Positions 257 through 8,539 of a stretch of DNA of 46,807 nt are shown here, one piece after another (positions within the stretch are counted from its first letter, which is position 1; each line of letters starts with the position of its first letter). The stretch is taken from positions 1 to 46,807 of the IMG/VR virus record IMGVR_UViG_3300013022_000001. One strand, given 5' to 3'. This DNA comes from a virus. A program made the translations under genes and the position numbers. Below the pieces are notes generated by a model. The model saw only the letters and a list, made by a program, of their open reading frames with translations. It was not told the DNA's origin and did not search any database.

Positions 257-277
257 TACCCATCAACAGGGGGCTAC

Positions 278-649
278 ATGGCACAGCGATATAACGTTCT
301 CACAAACGGCACGACAGGCTCTAACCGCCTTCCGGTAACATTACCAGATGTCAGTTATACATCTCCACTTATGGGGGCTGACTCTGACCGGGTTGATGCT
401 TACATTGAATTCTTTGATACTGCGGGCAATCCGGTAACGCCAACTGCTGGCCAGATATTTGTTTACGGCCTGCCTGTTGCACTAAACTGGCTTCCGGCTG
501 TTGGCTCTCCCGTCAATGCCACGCTCGTTACTGCTGGTATCAGTAGCTACACGCCACCCATGATGGACGGGCTATGCACACAGGCGCGCGTGCGCTTTGT
601 TGGCATTCAGGGCGCAACTACTGCATCAGTCGTCGTTTATAAGAGGTAA
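278..649 (+). CDS. Hypothetical virion-module protein, 123 aa
   Basis: Inner ATG of ORF 242..649, preceded by acaggggg. The ATG at 242 lies inside the terminator. Confidence 0.6.
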   Translation: MAQRYNVLTNGTTGSNRLPVTLPDVSYTSPLMGADSDRVDAYIEFFDTAGNPVTPTAGQIFVYGLPVALNWLPAVGSPVNATLVTAGISSYTPPMMDGLCTQARVRFVGIQGATTASVVVYKR

Positions 650-654
650 TTAAC

Positions 655-2502
655 ATGCCATATCCAAACAGAAGGGGCGGCGGTCAACCAGGCGCAGACG
701 GCAGGCCAGTGGAGTTACAGCAGGGGAGCGGCTACATTCAGTGGCGGTACCAGGGGGAAATAGCATGGCGCAATCTGATTCCACTAACTGATATTTCAGG
801 TGCTGATGGCAAGCCTGTCAATCTTAGGGTTAATTCAGGATGGATTCAATGGCAACATCAGGATGATACTAGCTGGCAGAATCTGATGAGCACCGCCGAC
901 ATGAAAGGTGACCCAGGACCAGCAAACTCGCTTAGCGTCGGCACAGTGCAGCAGTTGCCATCTGGCAGCGCGCCGCAAATCACGATAACGGGTAACTCAC
1001 CGTCACAGACTATCAATTTTTCAATGCCCGCGCCAAGGGATGGTGTTAATGGCACTAATGCCTCAATGAAAGTCGGTACTGTGTCGGCTCTGCCAGCCGG
1101 AAGTCAGCCAACTGTGCAAATAACAGGCTCAGCGCCAGAGCAGACTATTAATTTTGGCATACCACTTCCATTTAATGGCACTGATGGTAACAACGCGCCA
1201 AATAACGTCATTTCAATCGGAACTGTAGTTCCATTGCCTGCTGGCTCAACCCCAACAGCAAGCATTACAGGTGAATCACCTAATCAGGTGTTAAACCTCG
1301 GGCTGCCCATTCCTATGGCTGGGGTGAATGGCGCCAATAACACTCTCTCAATCGGTAACGTCACAAGCGGCCCTGCGGCTGCGACGATCACCGGCAATTC
1401 ACCAAACCAGACATTAAATTTAACGTTGCCACCTGGTGCCAACGGCACTGGCATTACTTCACAGTCAGTGACCTATCAGGCCAGTAATTCGGGAGCAACA
1501 ATACCATCAGGCACATGGCTGACAACCATGCCAGCAGTGGCAAAAGGCGGATACCTCTGGACAAGGACTGTCACGACACTGAGTGACAATACCTCTTCGA
1601 CTGCATATACGAGCGCCTACCAGGGGCAGGACGGATTGACGGGCAGTAATGGCAATGGCGTGGCATCACAGTCTGTCACTTACCAGGCTTCATCTTCCGG
1701 GACGGCAACGCCTGCGGGGACCTGGCTGACGACAATCCCGTCTGTTGCTAAGGGTCAGTATCTGTGGACACGCGTCACTCAGACAATGAACGATGCATCC
1801 AGCCTGACCTATCACTCTGTATCATATCAGGGCCTGGACGGCGCTGCTGGTAGCAATGGTTCAAACGGCACCAATGGAACAAATGGTAACGGCATTGCCT
1901 CACAGAGCATTACTTACCAGCAGTCATCATCGGGTATAACTCCACCAACTGGTGTTTGGACAAGCACTATTCCTTCAGTTTCCAAAGGCACATATCTGTG
2001 GACGAGAATATTACTGACATTCACTGATGGGAGCACTTCAACTGCTTATGCTGTAGCTTATCAGGCTACGGATGGCTTGCCGGGTTCCAACGGAACTAAT
2101 GGCACGAATGGCACGAATGGAGCAAACTATTCGCCGCAAGCTATGGCTTCACGTACAGTTGCCGTTGCCACTGCATATCAACACAGCGACCTGACCAAGC
2201 CGTTTAAAATAATGCTCAACGCCAGGTCAACGCAGACCGTCACCGTAGCTGGAACTGTCAATGACAGGGTTGAGTTACGCGTTGGCCCAAGCGCTGCGTC
2301 AGTTGCCCCTGGTGGAAGCGGTGGATTCTCTGTTGGAGTATGGGAGTCTGGAATGGTTGGAATATCACTGATGATTGGCGCGGCAGTACAGGATGGTGGC
2401 CAGTTAACCGCTGACGTTCCGGCTGGCTGGTACTTCCAGATAAACAGGCTTTCAGGAACAAATGCCACGATTGTAAGCTGCTTCACACAATCCATGACCT
2501 AA
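655..2502 (+). CDS. Modular repeat-rich fibre/decoration-like structural protein, 615 aa
   Basis: RBS aagagg at 641-646. It has 2 N-terminal G-A-D-G...IQW repeats. Four ~40-aa repeats follow (VGTV..LP.GS.P...ITG.SP.QT.N), then three ~70-aa repeats (SQSVTYQ...G.YLWTR...YQG.DG) joined by (NGT/SNG)n linkers. The C-terminus is a unique ~140-aa domain. Confidence 0.8.
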   Translation: MPYPNRRGGGQPGADGRPVELQQGSGYIQWRYQGEIAWRNLIPLTDISGADGKPVNLRVNSGWIQWQHQDDTSWQNLMSTADMKGDPGPANSLSVGTVQQLPSGSAPQITITGNSPSQTINFSMPAPRDGVNGTNASMKVGTVSALPAGSQPTVQITGSAPEQTINFGIPLPFNGTDGNNAPNNVISIGTVVPLPAGSTPTASITGESPNQVLNLGLPIPMAGVNGANNTLSIGNVTSGPAAATITGNSPNQTLNLTLPPGANGTGITSQSVTYQASNSGATIPSGTWLTTMPAVAKGGYLWTRTVTTLSDNTSSTAYTSAYQGQDGLTGSNGNGVASQSVTYQASSSGTATPAGTWLTTIPSVAKGQYLWTRVTQTMNDASSLTYHSVSYQGLDGAAGSNGSNGTNGTNGNGIASQSITYQQSSSGITPPTGVWTSTIPSVSKGTYLWTRILLTFTDGSTSTAYAVAYQATDGLPGSNGTNGTNGTNGANYSPQAMASRTVAVATAYQHSDLTKPFKIMLNARSTQTVTVAGTVNDRVELRVGPSAASVAPGGSGGFSVGVWESGMVGISLMIGAAVQDGGQLTADVPAGWYFQINRLSGTNATIVSCFTQSMT

Positions 2503-4815: not shown

Positions 4816-5214
4816 ATGGCTGGTAAACTGATGGGCCTGAAGCAGGCGCAGCAAAACCTGAATAAGATTGTCGATGAGATTTCTTCTCAGAAGATTGTGG
4901 CCGCGCTGACCAGTGCAAGCATCATCATTGCTACTGAAGCAGCCAGCATGACGCCTATTGACACCAGTACCCTGATTAACAGTCAGTACCGAGCCATTGA
5001 CGTGAATGGCACTCGTGTTACCGGTCGTATTGGCTACTCTGCCAATTACGCGCTGTACGTGCATAGCGCCAGCGGCAAGCTGAAAGGCCAGCCGCGTGCA
5101 AATGGTAATGGAGCGTATTGGGGTCCAAATGGTGAGAGCAAGTTCCTAGACAAGGCTGTCGAAAACACCAGGCAATCAGTTTACAGCGCAATAATGCGAG
5201 AGATGAAAATTTAA
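4816..5214 (+). CDS. HK97 gp10-like head-tail joining / tail completion protein
   Basis: ATG one codon inside ORF 4813..5214. Size, position and the motif GRIGYSANYALYVH resemble the gp10 family, from memory. Confidence 0.5.
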   Translation: MAGKLMGLKQAQQNLNKIVDEISSQKIVAALTSASIIIATEAASMTPIDTSTLINSQYRAIDVNGTRVTGRIGYSANYALYVHSASGKLKGQPRANGNGAYWGPNGESKFLDKAVENTRQSVYSAIMREMKI

Positions 5215-5702
5215 CCAGGATTCCAGAACTCTCCAAAAAGCTCCTTAGCCTTTTCGCAGTAAGCTTTGTGCGCCTCCTCTTTTGATGTGAACCTTCCGAT
5301 TTTCATTTTGATTCCATTTAATTTAATTTCTGCACGCCAGCGACCTGACCATGAGTCAAAGTGAACGCCTTTTACTCCAGATGTGTTTGACAGCCCCTTC
5401 TTTTTATTCATTTGGTTCTGGCTGATTGTTGCAGCGCGTAAATTGCAAATTCTGTTGTCACATCTATCTCCATTGATGTGATCTATAAATTCAGGTGGGT
5501 TTTCTTTGTAAAAAATGAACCACGCAACCCTGTGGGCAGGGACCCTGCGCTTGCCAAGAGTTATGTATCCAGAGTCTTTAATGTAGCTAGCTTTATCACC
5601 AGGCTTTACCTTTCCACAACCAATAAGCCAGAAAAAGTTACCTGTATCTGGCTCATATCTCAATCTTGATGATAGTCTTTTGTATTCGCATGCATTATTC
5701 AT
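5211..5702 (-). CDS. HNH homing endonuclease with C-terminal AP2 DNA-binding domain
   Basis: HNH_3-type motif DHINGDRCDNRICNLRAATISQN. AP2-like segment GVKGVHFDSWSGRWRAEIKLNGIKMKIGRFTSKEEAHKAY. Confidence 0.85.
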   Translation of the reverse strand: MNNACEYKRLSSRLRYEPDTGNFFWLIGCGKVKPGDKASYIKDSGYITLGKRRVPAHRVAWFIFYKENPPEFIDHINGDRCDNRICNLRAATISQNQMNKKKGLSNTSGVKGVHFDSWSGRWRAEIKLNGIKMKIGRFTSKEEAHKAYCEKAKELFGEFWNPG

Positions 5703-6007
5703 TTAATATTGATCCGCATTGATACTGGCGTTGAATCACAAACCTCCAGGATTGCATTGAGAGAAAAACCCAATGAAAATAGGTGTTTTAATATTTTCTC
5801 TATTGAAACACCTGATATCTGTCCGTTTTTTACTCTGCTTATTTCTGATTCTGAGCAGCCAAGTTTTGATGACCACTCCTTTTGGGTTAAGCCTGATCTT
5901 CTTAACCTATCAGTCAGCAGAATCACCAACTTGCTTTTAATGGCTGCAACTTCAGCATCTGGACCTTTGCCATAGATAACTTCGAATGGGTTTTTGACAG
6001 TATTCAT
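5699..6007 (-). CDS. XRE-family helix-turn-helix protein (HigA-antitoxin-like), 102 aa
   Basis: Motif GLTQKEWSSKLGCSESEISRVKNGQ. It overlaps the HNH gene by 4 nt. Confidence 0.7.
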   Translation of the reverse strand: MNTVKNPFEVIYGKGPDAEVAAIKSKLVILLTDRLRRSGLTQKEWSSKLGCSESEISRVKNGQISGVSIEKILKHLFSLGFSLNAILEVCDSTPVSMRINIK

Positions 6008-6034
6008 ATCACATCCTCATTTTTCAATTTGCAA

Positions 6035-6063
6035 ATTATGCAATAATGTTTTAACCAAGTCAA
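6035..6063 (-). promoter_or_regulatory. Promoter TTGACT-17-CATAAT for the HTH-HNH cassette
   Basis: The reverse complement reads ttgact tggttaaaacattattg cataat, followed by RBS gagga and ATG 6007. Confidence 0.6.
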
Positions 6064-6068
6064 ACATG

Positions 6069-6074
6069 TATAAT
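6069..6074 (+). promoter_or_regulatory. Perfect -10 TATAAT that restarts plus-strand transcription after the cassette
   Basis: catgTATAATcaacg lies 23 nt before ATG 6097. The -35 region is weak. Confidence 0.45.
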
Positions 6075-6096
6075 CAACGAAACACGAGGAGTTGCT

Positions 6097-6480
6097 ATGA
6101 TTGACATGACAGAGCGCGTGACTGCGTACCTTAAAGATGCAGGCATGACTGATGGCTATAAGGTTCAGGAGATGTTCTGGCGCGACACCGGGAAGGCTAC
6201 AGATAAGTTCATTGTTATTCAGCCAGCTGGCGGCACATCTGTAACCGATGACTTGTCCAACGATTATTTCGCTACAGTGTGGGTTGTTGGCGTCCAGGGC
6301 GGAACCGACCTGAAGGATATTGTGACGCGCGGACGCGAAATCATGCAGTACGTGAAAGACCATGCGGTTGATTCATGCCTGGGGTATGTACGCCTGCTTA
6401 ATCCACTCCAGACGCCGATGCAGACCGAAGAGAAGCGGGTTGCAATCCAGATTTCACTGCTCATCCGGTACGGAGAATAA
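6097..6480 (+). CDS. Putative tail completion/terminator-like protein, 127 aa
   Basis: RBS cgaggag. It is the last gene before the major tail gene. The function is assigned from position. Confidence 0.5.
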   Translation: MIDMTERVTAYLKDAGMTDGYKVQEMFWRDTGKATDKFIVIQPAGGTSVTDDLSNDYFATVWVVGVQGGTDLKDIVTRGREIMQYVKDHAVDSCLGYVRLLNPLQTPMQTEEKRVAIQISLLIRYGE

Positions 6481-6501
6481 AAAAATGCCGCACTGGGCGG
6501 C
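6479..6501 (-). terminator. Intrinsic terminator that works only in the minus direction
   Basis: The minus strand reads gccgc ccagt gcggc then a-TTTTTTT. The plus-strand orientation has no T-run after the hairpin. Confidence 0.55.
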
Positions 6502-6808
6502 TAAAGGGTGGTGGTGCAGGGATGATTTGGTTGTGGTGGCCGGTACTGAAATCCGGCATTAGGTGCCAATCTATATTTTTAGGCTATTATGTACACGTTT
6601 AGCGGCGATCAACCCGGGCGCTTATCTCATATATATCGCATCAGCCTGCGCATTCATCACAACGGAAATAACACTGTTCACCTGATTTAACTATGCTCAT
6701 CATTAAATCAGCAATGCTATTGCCTGTTGTATCCTCGTCTTTCCGAGGCGTCAAACCGAATAGCCATGATGGTTAATCACCCTCACAGTCGGTCACTTAA
6801 CTGCGGCT
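6484..6808 (-). ncRNA. Candidate ~320-nt structured non-coding or leader transcript
   Basis: Bounded by promoter 6815-6843 (minus) and terminator 6479-6501 (minus). It contains a 9-bp stem hairpin (ctgatttaa/ttaaatcag, ~6682-6711). Other hairpins are cctcg/cgagg (~6733-6748) and gccgg/ccggc (~6539-6557). Only micro-ORFs of 33 aa or fewer are present, none with a good RBS. Confidence 0.35.
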
Positions 6809-6814
6809 GAAATC

Positions 6815-6843
6815 AATATACTGCGTTTATCTACTTCCGTCAA
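6815..6843 (-). promoter_or_regulatory. Near-consensus promoter TTGACG-17-TATATT that points into a non-coding region
   Basis: The reverse complement reads ttgacg gaagtagataaacgcag tatatt. A GTAGAT box sits in the spacer. Confidence 0.6.
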
Positions 6844-6858
6844 GTCTGTGCATTGCTG

Positions 6859-6867
6859 TGATATAAT
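6859..6867 (+). promoter_or_regulatory. Extended -10 promoter TGaTATAAT for the major tail operon
   Basis: ctgTGaTATAATctc lies 43 nt before ATG 6910. Confidence 0.6.
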
Positions 6868-6909
6868 CTCAGCGCTATAGCACTCACTTTAACGTTAGAG
6901 GATTTGAAT

Positions 6910-7392
6910 ATGGCAATTTGCCCGAATGACACTATTAAGCTGGTTGGCCGAAATGCCACACTTGAGCTTGCAGATGGCTGCCCTGATGTTCTGCCTACCG
7001 AGGCTGAATGGAAGTATGCAGGCGCATTGACCACTAAGGGATTTGATTTTAGCCCAAACACCGTGACGTCTGAAGCTGATGACACCGGAGGCTTCCAGGA
7101 ATCTCTGGTAACCAACTCAGACTTTACCATTAGTGCCGAAGGTGAAGTTCGCACTAATGATAAATCTGATGAGTACGGCTTTGGCCGGATGGTTCTTTAC
7201 TATGCCACTGAGCTGAAAGCACGCCGCCAACCTACTGTGTGGGTTCGCCTGGGTTTTGGCCCGGTCACAATGGTTATGTACGCAACCATTACTGCGCTGA
7301 GCGGCGATGCTGGTACAAACGATATTGTGACCTTCTCTATGGAGCTTCACCCTGCCGCTTCTGAGACTGTAACTATTGAGGAGGCTGCATAA
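6910..7392 (+). CDS. Major tail protein, 160 aa
   Basis: The ATG follows RBS agagga. Size, beta-rich composition and position upstream of the chaperone and tape measure genes support the call. Confidence 0.6.
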   Translation: MAICPNDTIKLVGRNATLELADGCPDVLPTEAEWKYAGALTTKGFDFSPNTVTSEADDTGGFQESLVTNSDFTISAEGEVRTNDKSDEYGFGRMVLYYATELKARRQPTVWVRLGFGPVTMVMYATITALSGDAGTNDIVTFSMELHPAASETVTIEEAA

Positions 7393-7742
7393 TGGCCACA
7401 ATCACACCCACCTCAGTTCGTGGCGCTGGTGCGCCTGGCACAATCGCCGTTACCGTGCTGACTGCATCTGACACGCTGGTATATAAACCAACTCAGTCTC
7501 AAGTTCTGATTCTGCGTAACGAAACTGGCGCATCAAAAACGGTAAATATTGATGGCGACAGCGCAACCACAATCTCACCATCGGGTTACGGTGGCACCAT
7601 TAGCGTTGCTGGCGGTAAGGACATCGTGATTGCAGATGGCGCGACATCGTTTGTCCGCCTGAGCGACATCAAGGCATTTCTGGCTGGTGTTATCGCTATT
7701 ACTGGCGGCACTGGCGTTGAAGCGATGCTGATTGAGCAGTAA
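7392..7742 (+). CDS. Hypothetical tail-module protein, 116 aa
   Basis: TAATG overlap with the major tail gene. Beta-rich and Gly/Thr-rich. Confidence 0.6.
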   Translation: MATITPTSVRGAGAPGTIAVTVLTASDTLVYKPTQSQVLILRNETGASKTVNIDGDSATTISPSGYGGTISVAGGKDIVIADGATSFVRLSDIKAFLAGVIAITGGTGVEAMLIEQ

Positions 7743-7747
7743 TAAAA

Positions 7748-7765
7748 AGGCCCCGAAAGGGGCCT
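7748..7765. terminator. Hairpin terminator between convergent genes
   Basis: Stem aggcccc / ggggcct with loop gaaa. The A-run upstream makes it stronger in the minus direction. Confidence 0.6.
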
Positions 7766-8411
7766 ACTTATTTGCCTCATAAACCGCCCTGGCAAATCCG
7801 CGAGGAGTAAGTGAGCGAAGCTGCTTTGTTTTGGTAGATGCTCCACCTAATGATTTCCACCCCCAGAAACAACCGATGTGCTCAACTGGTTTTTTCTCTG
7901 GCATCACGAATCCATTTCCCGCCCAGATGCATGTTTTCTTAGTGTACCCATCACGCGCAGGCATTTTGTGGTGAATCACTGGCTCAAAACCAGACATATA
8001 GCCGCCGTACTCAAACGGGTTAAAGTAATGCTGCGGCTTTTCCCACTCTGTCGATAACTTGCCAACAGGGTTTTCAACCATCCAAGGGCATGAATATTTA
8101 TCTCCAAGCCTTTTTGCTTCTTTTGCAAGAACAATAGCATGCTGAATATCACTAATTTCACGATCATGTTGCTCTCCCGACCCTGCAAGAAAAGTGCAGT
8201 CCGGGAAAGAGAAGATTATGTCTGGCTTAAGCGCGAAATCAAAATACTCTGTAATCCACGTATTCACATAATGGATATTGTCATGCTTCATCTTGACAAC
8301 ATACTCACCATGGTTAGCATCATCGGCGTTGAAACAGTAAACCTGATGACCCGCCATAGCCCACGGCAATCCCATAATTCCTGAACCATCGAACATGCTC
8401 CAGATAATCAC
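7764..8411 (-). CDS. Compact C5-cytosine-methyltransferase-like protein, 215 aa
   Basis: Motif I-like FDGSG, motif IV-like FPDC, motif VI-like ENPVG. The GTG start overlaps the upstream stop (GTGA). It is much shorter than typical Dcm enzymes. Confidence 0.5.
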   Translation of the reverse strand: MIIWSMFDGSGIMGLPWAMAGHQVYCFNADDANHGEYVVKMKHDNIHYVNTWITEYFDFALKPDIIFSFPDCTFLAGSGEQHDREISDIQHAIVLAKEAKRLGDKYSCPWMVENPVGKLSTEWEKPQHYFNPFEYGGYMSGFEPVIHHKMPARDGYTKKTCIWAGNGFVMPEKKPVEHIGCFWGWKSLGGASTKTKQLRSLTPRGFARAVYEANK

Positions 8412-8539
8412 AGAGATTCCCCGCTCATCATCTCAACCAGCGCCCTTGCCTTTTCTTGAGCCTCTTCTTTGCTGAATCCCTGGTCTACATAGAGTGCGCT
8501 GTAGTACTCAAAGTCAGCCTGCATTTCTCTGTCGTCCAT
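8408..8539 (-). CDS. Acidic small protein, 43 aa (MDDREMQADFEYYSALYVDQGFSKEEAQEKARALVEMMSGESL)
   Basis: RBS gagga 6 nt upstream. Translationally coupled on both sides. Not in the ORF track. Confidence 0.5.
   Translation of the reverse strand: MDDREMQADFEYYSALYVDQGFSKEEAQEKARALVEMMSGESL

Follow-up and report, generated by a model that had tools for sequence, protein, structure and literature searches.

The window analysed here, the whole 46,807-nt stretch of IMG/VR virus record IMGVR_UViG_3300013022_000001, is a siphophage genome of about 47 kb. On its plus strand, the tail terminator gene (PF23842, 6097-6480) and the major tail protein gene (phrog_853, 6910-7392) are separated by 423 nt (6481-6903) with no open reading frame (ORF) longer than 40 amino acids (aa). 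A first-pass annotation, made from the sequence alone, had described this gap as lacking a credible ORF and had proposed a minus-strand non-coding RNA of about 320 nt in its place. A credible ORF is indeed missing, although the size limit given at the time, 33 aa or fewer, is true for ATG starts only: the longest gap ORF on the plus strand has 40 aa and starts with GTG, and the longest on the minus strand has 37 aa and starts with TTG. On the evidence below, the gap is, somewhat probably, an autonomous non-coding RNA gene (6481-6843, minus strand), predicted to act in trans through a variable insert. The RNA belongs to a large family that is absent from Rfam 15 and, no description of it having been found, is apparently undescribed.

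The minus-strand sigma70 match reported earlier, TTGACG-17-TATATT, was recovered at 6843..6815 in a consensus scan (10/12, joint best within 5000-8500), with the -35 hexamer at 6838..6843, the -10 hexamer at 6815..6820 and a predicted start near 6808. The terminator, claimed to work in the minus orientation only, was likewise found (6501..6479, minus strand). Its hairpin GCCGCCCAGTGCGGC, also written GCCGCCCAGUGCGGC, has a 5-bp all-GC stem (GCCGC/GCGGC) and is followed by A + U7; in the plus reading it lacks a T-run, as had been stated. The U-tract overlaps the TAA stop (6478-6480) of the convergent gene 6097-6480. Hexamers with 17-nt spacing and a GC hairpin with its U-tract thus lie on one strand, as in a sigma70/terminator unit, the activity of which is predicted. 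In number alone, neither kind of signal is beyond chance (8 promoter-like matches against 5.5±2.5 expected, and 4 terminator-like matches against 3.4±1.7). The two signals are credible because they are conserved in a close relative, the IMG/VR contig L017, and not from the consensus match alone. The flanking genes of L017 are about 95% identical to those of the window, and both of its promoter hexamers are intact (TTGACG unchanged, TATATT kept) despite four substitutions in the spacer; its terminator stem is also intact, with one loop substitution and U8. Phages Bas80 and KpS_GP1 carry TTGACA-17-TAGATT at the equivalent position, and the start region of the window RNA, AUUUCAG, resembles that of Bas80. 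The predicted primary transcript (6481..6808, minus strand), bounded by promoter and intrinsic terminator, is about 325 nt long, and each of its segments has homologues in other phages. For context, the extended -10 of the major tail gene, TGaTATAAT (6859..6867, plus strand), is divergent from the RNA promoter and lies back-to-back with it, in agreement with the first-pass annotation; TGTGATATAAT is also found upstream of the major tail gene in Bas80.

Read in the minus sense, the transcript consists of a 5' domain (6732..6808), a connector hairpin (6664..6731), a 134-nt segment here called the S module (6530..6663, recognised by nhmmer and covariation), a C/A-rich 3' tail (6502..6529) and the terminator. 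Family members of the S module share the order GUUGUGGUG, AAU, hairpin GCGCA-GGCUGA-UGCGC, insert, hairpin GCCGG-AGAUCAGCA-CCGGC, CACCACAAC, and the conserved core of the family, recognised in the window by profile search, reads GUGGUG-AAU-GCGCAGGCUGAUGCGC ... GCCGG-(loop with UCAGC)-CCGGC-CACCAC. The first and last 9 nt of the module pair with each other as helix P1. In the window, its 5' strand GUUGUGAUG (6655..6663) pairs with its 3' strand CACCACAAC (6530..6538) with one A·C mismatch, the outer pairs covarying widely across the family. The P2 hairpin GCGCA-GGCUGA-UGCG (6637..6651) is nearly invariant, and its stem covaries in L027b, L138b and P7. The P3 hairpin GCCGG-AUUUCAGUA-CCGGC (6539..6557) abuts the 3' strand of P1. 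In the family, the P2 loop GCUGA is complementary to UCAGC of the P3 loop, and in the window it faces UCAGU. P1, P2, P3 and the loop-loop helix are all able to form in the window copy. Between P2 and P3 lies the variable insert (6558..6636), which in the window is 79 nt long and of a type designated W; family inserts are hypervariable, with dozens of unrelated types of about 25-160 nt. Profiles made from the 5' and 3' core halves of the family, the window copy itself being among the members, match the window at a single place and on the minus strand only (6663-6635, 37.1 bits, E 3e-9, and 6560-6530, 33.5 bits, E 3.6e-8).

The connector hairpin is the dominant helix in both the minimum free energy (MFE) and the centroid fold and is conserved across the family. 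It is made up of a 5' strand UACAACAGGCAAUAGCAUUG (6712-6731), a cap hairpin (6677-6711) and a 3' strand CAGUGUUAUUUCC (6664-6676). The cap includes the 9-bp stem ctgatttaa/ttaaatcag (6682-6690/6703-6711) that had been pointed out before; it is a plain AU-rich hairpin of about 30 nt in the window, caps being exchanged wholesale among close relatives. Relative to the window, the L017 connector stem shows a U-A to G-C compensation and minus-sense G·U pairs, with the cap wholly replaced. The 5' domain holds the 3' end only (UGGCUAUUCGGUUUGACGCC, 6747-6766) of another module found in relatives, called R, and a hairpin CCUCGGAAAGACGAGG (6733-6748). Blocks of this domain are homologous in lambdoid, P22-like and P1-like loci, and its hairpin shows compensatory changes (e.g. 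CCUGGG..CCAGG). The GC hairpins of the first-pass annotation are present at 6539-6557, 6637-6651 and 6733-6748, and its C/A-rich tract lies within 6502-6538. The 3' tail (CAAAUCAUCCCUGCACCACCACCCUUUA), identified by reading of the sequence, is mostly kept in L017 except for a 10-nt indel.

Conservation of the structure across related phages was seen as covariation in two alignments. Among 55 viral copies, 92.9% of cells are paired, against 27-53% in slid controls, and 10 pairs show double changes, against 2.5±1.2 in shuffles (0/500 reach this number). Among 36 copies, mostly from bacterial genomes, 95.8% of cells are paired (slid controls 25-51%), and double changes occur at 15/24 pairs against 3.6±1.1 (0/500). 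The two loops pair in 96-98% of the sequences, and in P7 one G-C pair has become A-U by a double change; P3 loops vary from 8 to 13 nt, with CAGC always kept at the 3' side. Variants include GGCGG/CCGUC in P2, GCAGG/CCUGC in P3, and GGAGUGGUG/CACCACUCC and the fully compensated GAUUGGAUG/CAUCCAAUC in P1. The last of these comes from a standalone copy (L008 6448-6565, plus strand), in which P1 is extended by about 10 more bp and the connector is missing. Thus, the S module also exists outside RNA islands. This standalone copy adjoins an insertion sequence, with an IS1222 frameshift element at 5972-6089.

Two observations place the RNA on the minus strand of the window. In the minus sense there are 43 G·U against 16 A·C cells, and tRNA genes, found within 600 nt of modules in 28/176 distinct contexts, are on the module strand in 49/49 cases. 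In a Massilia chromosome, for example, the order is tRNA-Gly, S module, tRNA-Pro. Judged from sequence, the S core is a tRNA-like three-helix layout with an acceptor-like stem, 'D' and 'T' hairpins and a Watson-Crick 'elbow', in which the insert occupies the place of the tRNA anticodon arm.

The same evidence bears on the reading of the element as a DNA-level recombination 'linker' for cassette exchange, or as a micro-protein gene, which we regard as extremely improbable. Conserved flanks, hypervariable inserts and the cap replacement between close relatives do resemble recombinational exchange, and some GenBank records call hypothetical proteins over the element. However, the helices covary, the G·U pairs favour one strand, and strict co-orientation with tRNAs would be unexpected for a pure DNA site; flank recombination may well occur in addition, but leaves the structure unexplained. 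The annotated ORFs are also unconserved. When the window, L017, Bas80, 24-32N, KpS_GP1, Stx2 and BUCT554 are compared, the longest ORFs differ in strand, frame and length, and where Bas80 has an annotated ORF of 121 aa, close homologues have it in pieces of 36/52 and 37/74 aa. The claim of a non-coding RNA therefore stands against this comparison, and comparative data support a minus-strand gene of about 320 nt through the widespread homology of its modules, compensatory changes and minus-sense G·U pairs, with further support from tRNA co-orientation, the promoter and terminator kept in L017, and the lack of a conserved ORF.

The homology and modularity of the element are evident from its distribution. 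Sensitive blastn of the gap returned short blocks of 85-92% identity in 179 GenBank phage records of unrelated types, namely Jersey-like coliphages Bas77-80, Klebsiella siphophages, the P1-like P7 and D6, Stx2-converting and other lambdoid phages, N4-like phages of about 72 kb and a P22-like Enterobacter phage. The matches sit in unannotated gaps or beneath isolated 'hypothetical protein' calls. Megablast against GenBank phages and E. coli genomes returned no close relative. In IMG/VR, a scan for an exact pattern gave at least 120 loci or contigs, and 241 plasmid records, mostly P1-like, also carry matches. Of the version in Stx phages, a part matches in 2663/5426 complete E. coli genomes, with no non-coding RNA annotated there. 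A 24-nt core pattern was found in 58 bacterial species, including many Enterobacterales, Aeromonas, Oxalobacteraceae among which are Janthinobacterium, Massilia and Undibacterium, as well as Xenophilus, Marinobacterium, Moraxellaceae, Lysobacterales, Martelella and several metagenome-assembled genomes (MAGs).

The genomic contexts are correspondingly diverse. S modules occur inside tRNA operons (P1-like phages, the Massilia chromosome) and in N4-like phages, and in Bas80 and KpS_GP1 the element occupies the junction that it occupies in the window, upstream of the gene for the major tail protein and beside minus-strand tRNA genes. Clustering of the proteins encoded within ±4 kb of 183 contexts revealed no universal partner gene. 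The commonest neighbour is an upstream cI-like repressor (55 contexts), the RNA island lying about 0.7 kb downstream of the repressor gene and co-oriented with it, as in lambdoid prophages (L004 1197-1974, L002). In phage lambda, the position after cI is occupied by rexAB. Since the island holds this rexAB position, its location suggests expression in lysogens.

These contexts weigh on the first of two functions raised in the first-pass annotation, in which the minus-strand RNA would control expression of the major tail or tail terminator gene, as an antisense RNA or through interference between the back-to-back promoters. Gene 6097-6480 is not followed by a terminator on the plus strand, so transcripts reading through there would be complementary to the RNA over its whole length, and the closely spaced divergent promoters are kept in the syntenic L017, Bas80 and KpS_GP1. 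However, the same core is found in many contexts away from tail genes. The annotated relatives with the most similar major tail protein, Erwinia phage vB_EhrS_49 and Cronobacter phage ENT47670, have only 23-28 nt at the junction between tail terminator and major tail genes and lack the cassette. The extended -10 of the major tail gene itself lies downstream of the RNA start, so a normal major tail leader would not overlap the RNA, and conservation falls on the RNA structure and insert rather than on complementarity to the tail leader. A dedicated role in tail dosage is thus disfavoured, and we consider control in cis very unlikely; convergent read-through from gene 6097-6480 may still occur. 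Because the relatives have 23-28 nt in its place, the gap is an inserted cassette, like the HNH+HTH cassette at 5211-6007, and on the sequence evidence the RNA is an inserted 'moron' rather than a regulator of tail genes. The second function that had been raised, a trans-acting RNA, fits these data.

Known RNA families do not account for the element. In a search of Rfam 15 at E ≤ 10, the gap had no genuine match, the one return being a snoRNA at 15 bits. ARAGORN finds no tRNA or tmRNA genes in the window, and there is no Rfam tRNA (RF00005) match at E ≤ 10. A hammerhead-like CUGAUGA core was considered and rejected: the window reads CUGAUGC instead, and there is no match to a ribozyme model. 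STnc100 (RF02076) is the sole Rfam family with a link to the system, through the third module of the P7 array, at 43 bits and thus below the gathering threshold of 47 bits. In the window, there is no match to STnc100 in 5500-8000 even at E ≤ 10, and the window RNA is therefore not a member of STnc100 by the Rfam criterion. The likeness is one of architecture, with some short strings of the core in common. Like the S module, STnc100 has a closing helix ..UGGUG/CACCA.., AAU, a hairpin, a variable middle and a CCGG..CCGG hairpin abutting the closing helix, the Rfam consensus being ..UGGUG-AAU-hairpin ... CCGGGAGGCACCCGG-CACCA... STnc100 and PasD also resemble the S module in being borne by phages or prophages, near tRNAs or TerB and in moron-like positions. 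In contrast, the sequences of P2 and P3 and the loop lengths are different, and the S core is far more widespread than STnc100, reaching Betaproteobacteria and beyond with dozens of insert types. The window RNA looks like a sister family of STnc100. STnc100 and PasD are described as structurally homologous prophage small RNAs (Zhu, Shabalina and Storz, bioRxiv 10.64898/2026.05.13.724894). PasD1, PasD2 and STnc100 are Hfq-associated and belong to prophages of pathogenic E. coli and Salmonella (PMC8550237; bioRxiv 10.64898/2026.05.13.724894); PasD is verified by Northern blot and Hfq-dependent, with mRNA pairing known from RIL-seq (PMC8550237). Full-text literature searches for the core sequences and for tag peptides of a neighbouring module (see below) gave no matches, and keyword searches returned only the STnc100 and Pas papers.

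With tRNAs, the S module shares a terminal stem, a hairpin stacked on the 3' strand and a second hairpin 2-3 nt after the 5' strand, the loop-loop contact standing in for the D/T elbow. It is also co-oriented with neighbouring tRNA genes, often between them. Unlike tRNA, it has a P1 of 9 bp, no T- or D-loop consensus, no anticodon arm and no conserved 3' CCA, and there is no sign of aminoacylation in the module. A 3' CCA as a tRNA-like end was accordingly rejected: the window reads CACCACA-A-CCA, but the CCA is not conserved across the family. tmRNA is similar in placing a foreign functional domain on a tRNA-like body where the anticodon arm would be. However, the S core lacks both the G3·U70 pair and a T-loop, no tag ORF is present in the window, and the tag module of relatives is upstream of the S module in the same transcript, unlike the inserted tag domain of tmRNA. 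The C4 RNA of P1/P7 and the CI RNA of P4 are small structured phage RNAs with a terminal stem and variable loops that set specificity. They are processed by RNase P and matured by tRNA-processing enzymes, and they belong to immunity regions with a defined antisense target. The S module, for which processing would be expected, differs from them in fold and genomic role, and the Rfam C4 model has no match in the window. In the engineered 'tRNA scaffold' of Ponchon and Dardel, the anticodon arm is reportedly swapped for a recombinant RNA cargo, to the benefit of folding, processing and nuclease resistance. The S module, in contrast, is natural, is no true tRNA and has a Watson-Crick loop-loop helix instead of the canonical elbow.

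The insert of type W is common to the window, L017, L050 and two Pantoea prophage copies. Its 5 homologues share a covarying hairpin and the invariant unpaired sequences UAUAUGAG and CUAAAAAU. Judged by this covariation and by the conserved unpaired motifs, the insert is under selection. It has no match in Rfam, in E. coli rRNA, tmRNA or RNase P RNA, or in E. coli genomes.

Transcription, processing and action in trans are inferred from these features and could proceed as follows. Transcription from the σ70-type promoter would yield an RNA of about 325 nt, ending at the intrinsic terminator and assembled from family modules, i.e. the 5' domain, the long connector hairpin and the 134-nt S module. 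The P2 and P3 loops (GCUGA and UCAG(C/U)) would kiss in the manner of the D-loop/T-loop elbow, and the tRNA-shaped core may confer tRNA-like processing and stability, the S module being presumably co-transcribed with tRNAs in relatives. The long connector helix is a possible RNase III-type processing site. The insert would be the effector, its target in trans being an RNA or protein of the host or of a competitor. The leading candidate for its mode of action is base-pairing through the unpaired UAUAUGAG and CUAAAAAU, favoured by analogy with PasD and STnc100 and possibly involving Hfq as it does for them.

Several observations weigh against this model. The window core has three weakening changes relative to the consensus or to L017: the A·C mismatch in P1 (A-U in L017), a G·U pair in the loop-loop helix and G·A at the outer, closing pair of P2. 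The MFE fold of the window favours an extended connector hairpin over P1, and the folding energy of the single sequence is unexceptional (z = -1.5 for the minus strand); with z = -1.9 for the plus strand, folding energy cannot separate the strands. As to targets, the longest perfect antisense match to the rest of the phage genome has 12 nt, and shuffled sequences give 11-15. An Hfq-type 3' end does not characterise the family, because in relatives the module is followed by tRNAs and not by a terminator. In addition, one insert class of the family mimics 16S helix 11, which points to a decoy or to protein binding and not to base-pairing.

The weakened core is also what would be expected of a decaying remnant of a stable-RNA/tRNA island, such as that at the Bas80 and KpS_GP1 junction; the remnant would no longer function in the window phage. 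The window has neither the tRNAs nor the tmRNA-like module that relatives carry here, its R module is reduced to a 3' fragment, and its connector cap is a plain hairpin. However, 130/134 nt of the S module are retained between the window and L017, along with hexamers and terminator, while the cap has been replaced. Insert W is kept, with covariation, in distant Pantoea prophages, and phage genomes rarely retain 400 nt of dead sequence. Decay to a remnant is thus very improbable.

A functional alternative to base-pairing is that the core serves as carrier for an insert that mimics the surface of a host RNA and titrates or diverts a host protein. Examples of such a protein would be a ribosomal protein, an enzyme of RNA modification or processing, or a defence nuclease that targets RNA. 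Evidence for it includes the helix-11 class, in which the insert matches positions 237-283 of the bacterial small subunit (SSU) rRNA model (31.5 bits, E 2e-5; blastn 29 nt, 90% identity), with a compensatory stem change from UAGGUG/CACCUA to AUGGUG/CACCAU. This insert is found at L046 4600-4646 (plus strand), L061 1953-1999 (minus strand), L053, L063, L092 and L127. The arrangement of S modules in arrays with tRNAs and tmRNA-like tag modules is also consistent with mimicry, and a core that is nearly invariant over Beta- and Gammaproteobacteria would fit recognition by a conserved host machine. Against it, dozens of insert types are known and a mimic is recognised in just one: when all elements were compared by blastn with E. 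coli 16S, 23S, 5S, tmRNA and RNase P RNA, the sole match was the insert resembling helix 11, which is of another subtype; type W matches no host RNA searched, and no conserved neighbouring gene emerged from the 183 contexts. As the function of the window RNA, a decoy is rather unlikely, and action of the insert in trans by base-pairing is preferred.

A broader proposal, which we put forward as a tentative possibility, is that the core is a natural display scaffold for interchangeable RNA cargoes, and that the RNA islands, transcribed together with phage tRNAs, act as decoys or spare parts against RNA-targeting defences or for translation takeover. If so, its users would be phages and prophages of Gamma- and Betaproteobacteria, some cargoes would imitate host RNAs, as the helix-11 insert does, and cargo W would belong among such effectors as a still uncharacterised one. 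The design of the family is unusual in combining a near-invariant tRNA-like core and loop-loop 'elbow' with a hypervariable but individually conserved insert. Phage non-coding RNAs are poorly catalogued, and gaps such as this one are usually left blank or given spurious 'hypothetical protein' calls; with a covariance model of the core, intergenic regions would be annotated by the hundred in phages and prophages. The family also places STnc100 and PasD in a wider structural context, and offers a handle on how phages package and stabilise regulatory or decoy RNAs and on the abundance of 'spacer' in phage tRNA islands.

Other modules accompany the S module in the RNA islands of relatives. A tmRNA-like module is found upstream of it in L001 (Bas80, about 1788-1911, minus strand) and also in L005, L007, L015, L023, L034, L037, L049, L093 and L098. 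It has a 10-codon tag ORF of type ANDxxxLxxA after 'GAUAAAU', with the tags ANDDVVLMAA, ANDEQFLAVA, ANEEMYLAVA, ANDDLMLMAA, ANEDRFLMAA, ANEEVYLAVA and ANDDQFLAVA, the peptide pattern being kept while the nucleotides vary. Matches of these modules to Rfam tmRNA_permuted and beta_tmRNA are sub-threshold, ARAGORN makes no call, and a canonical alanine-type acceptor stem was not seen. The tag module may be a phage mini-tmRNA or a tmRNA mimic.

The R module is about 150 nt long (ACGGCRUAUGGCACAUG...GCGGUCCGG...GGGUAGCCGGAAUGUGCAAG...UGGCGAUNCGGUGUGACACC plus a hairpin) and occurs upstream of S modules (L006 about 1620-1800 and L004 about 1650-1820, both minus strand) and, in the P1-like L003, L011, L027, L075 and L118, directly after a tRNA. 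It has no Rfam match, and a suspected likeness to RNase P RNA at its 3' end found no support in blastn. Connector caps often carry hairpins like the tRNA T-arm (GGGUUCGAAUCCC, CUGGUUCAAUUCCAG, AAGGUUUGAGUCCUU), for example in L006 (about 1555-1590, minus strand), L004 (about 1560-1630, minus strand) and L017. In L037, an int-alpA RNA (RF02996; 43.7 bits, gathering 35.8) lies directly downstream of the S module and its terminator (264-330, minus strand).

Further features flank the tail genes of the window. The HNH+HTH cassette (5211-6007, minus strand) encodes an HNH endonuclease with an AP2 domain (5211-5702) and an HTH_37 protein (5699-6007), and sits between the tail-completion and tail terminator genes. 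As these two tail genes are contiguous in vB_EhrS_49, it is another insertion into the structural module. On the other side, a 116-aa ORF (7392-7742, plus strand) overlaps the stop codon of the major tail gene (TAATG). Neither Pfam nor PHROG gives a match for it, and it is unlike the C-terminal, Ig-like part of the longer major tail protein of Bas80. A split or truncated major tail gene (160 aa) was considered and rejected, the major tail protein of ENT47670 being 164 aa. Lastly, the model of the Rhizobiales small RNA Atu_C8 matches weakly at 7732-7829 of the window (minus strand, 23 bits) and, in the corresponding position, at 2794-2891 of L017 (minus strand, 31 bits, E 0.028). The matched region spans a strong hairpin (7748-7765) between the 116-aa ORF and a minus-strand DNA methyltransferase gene, and is probably just a terminator region.

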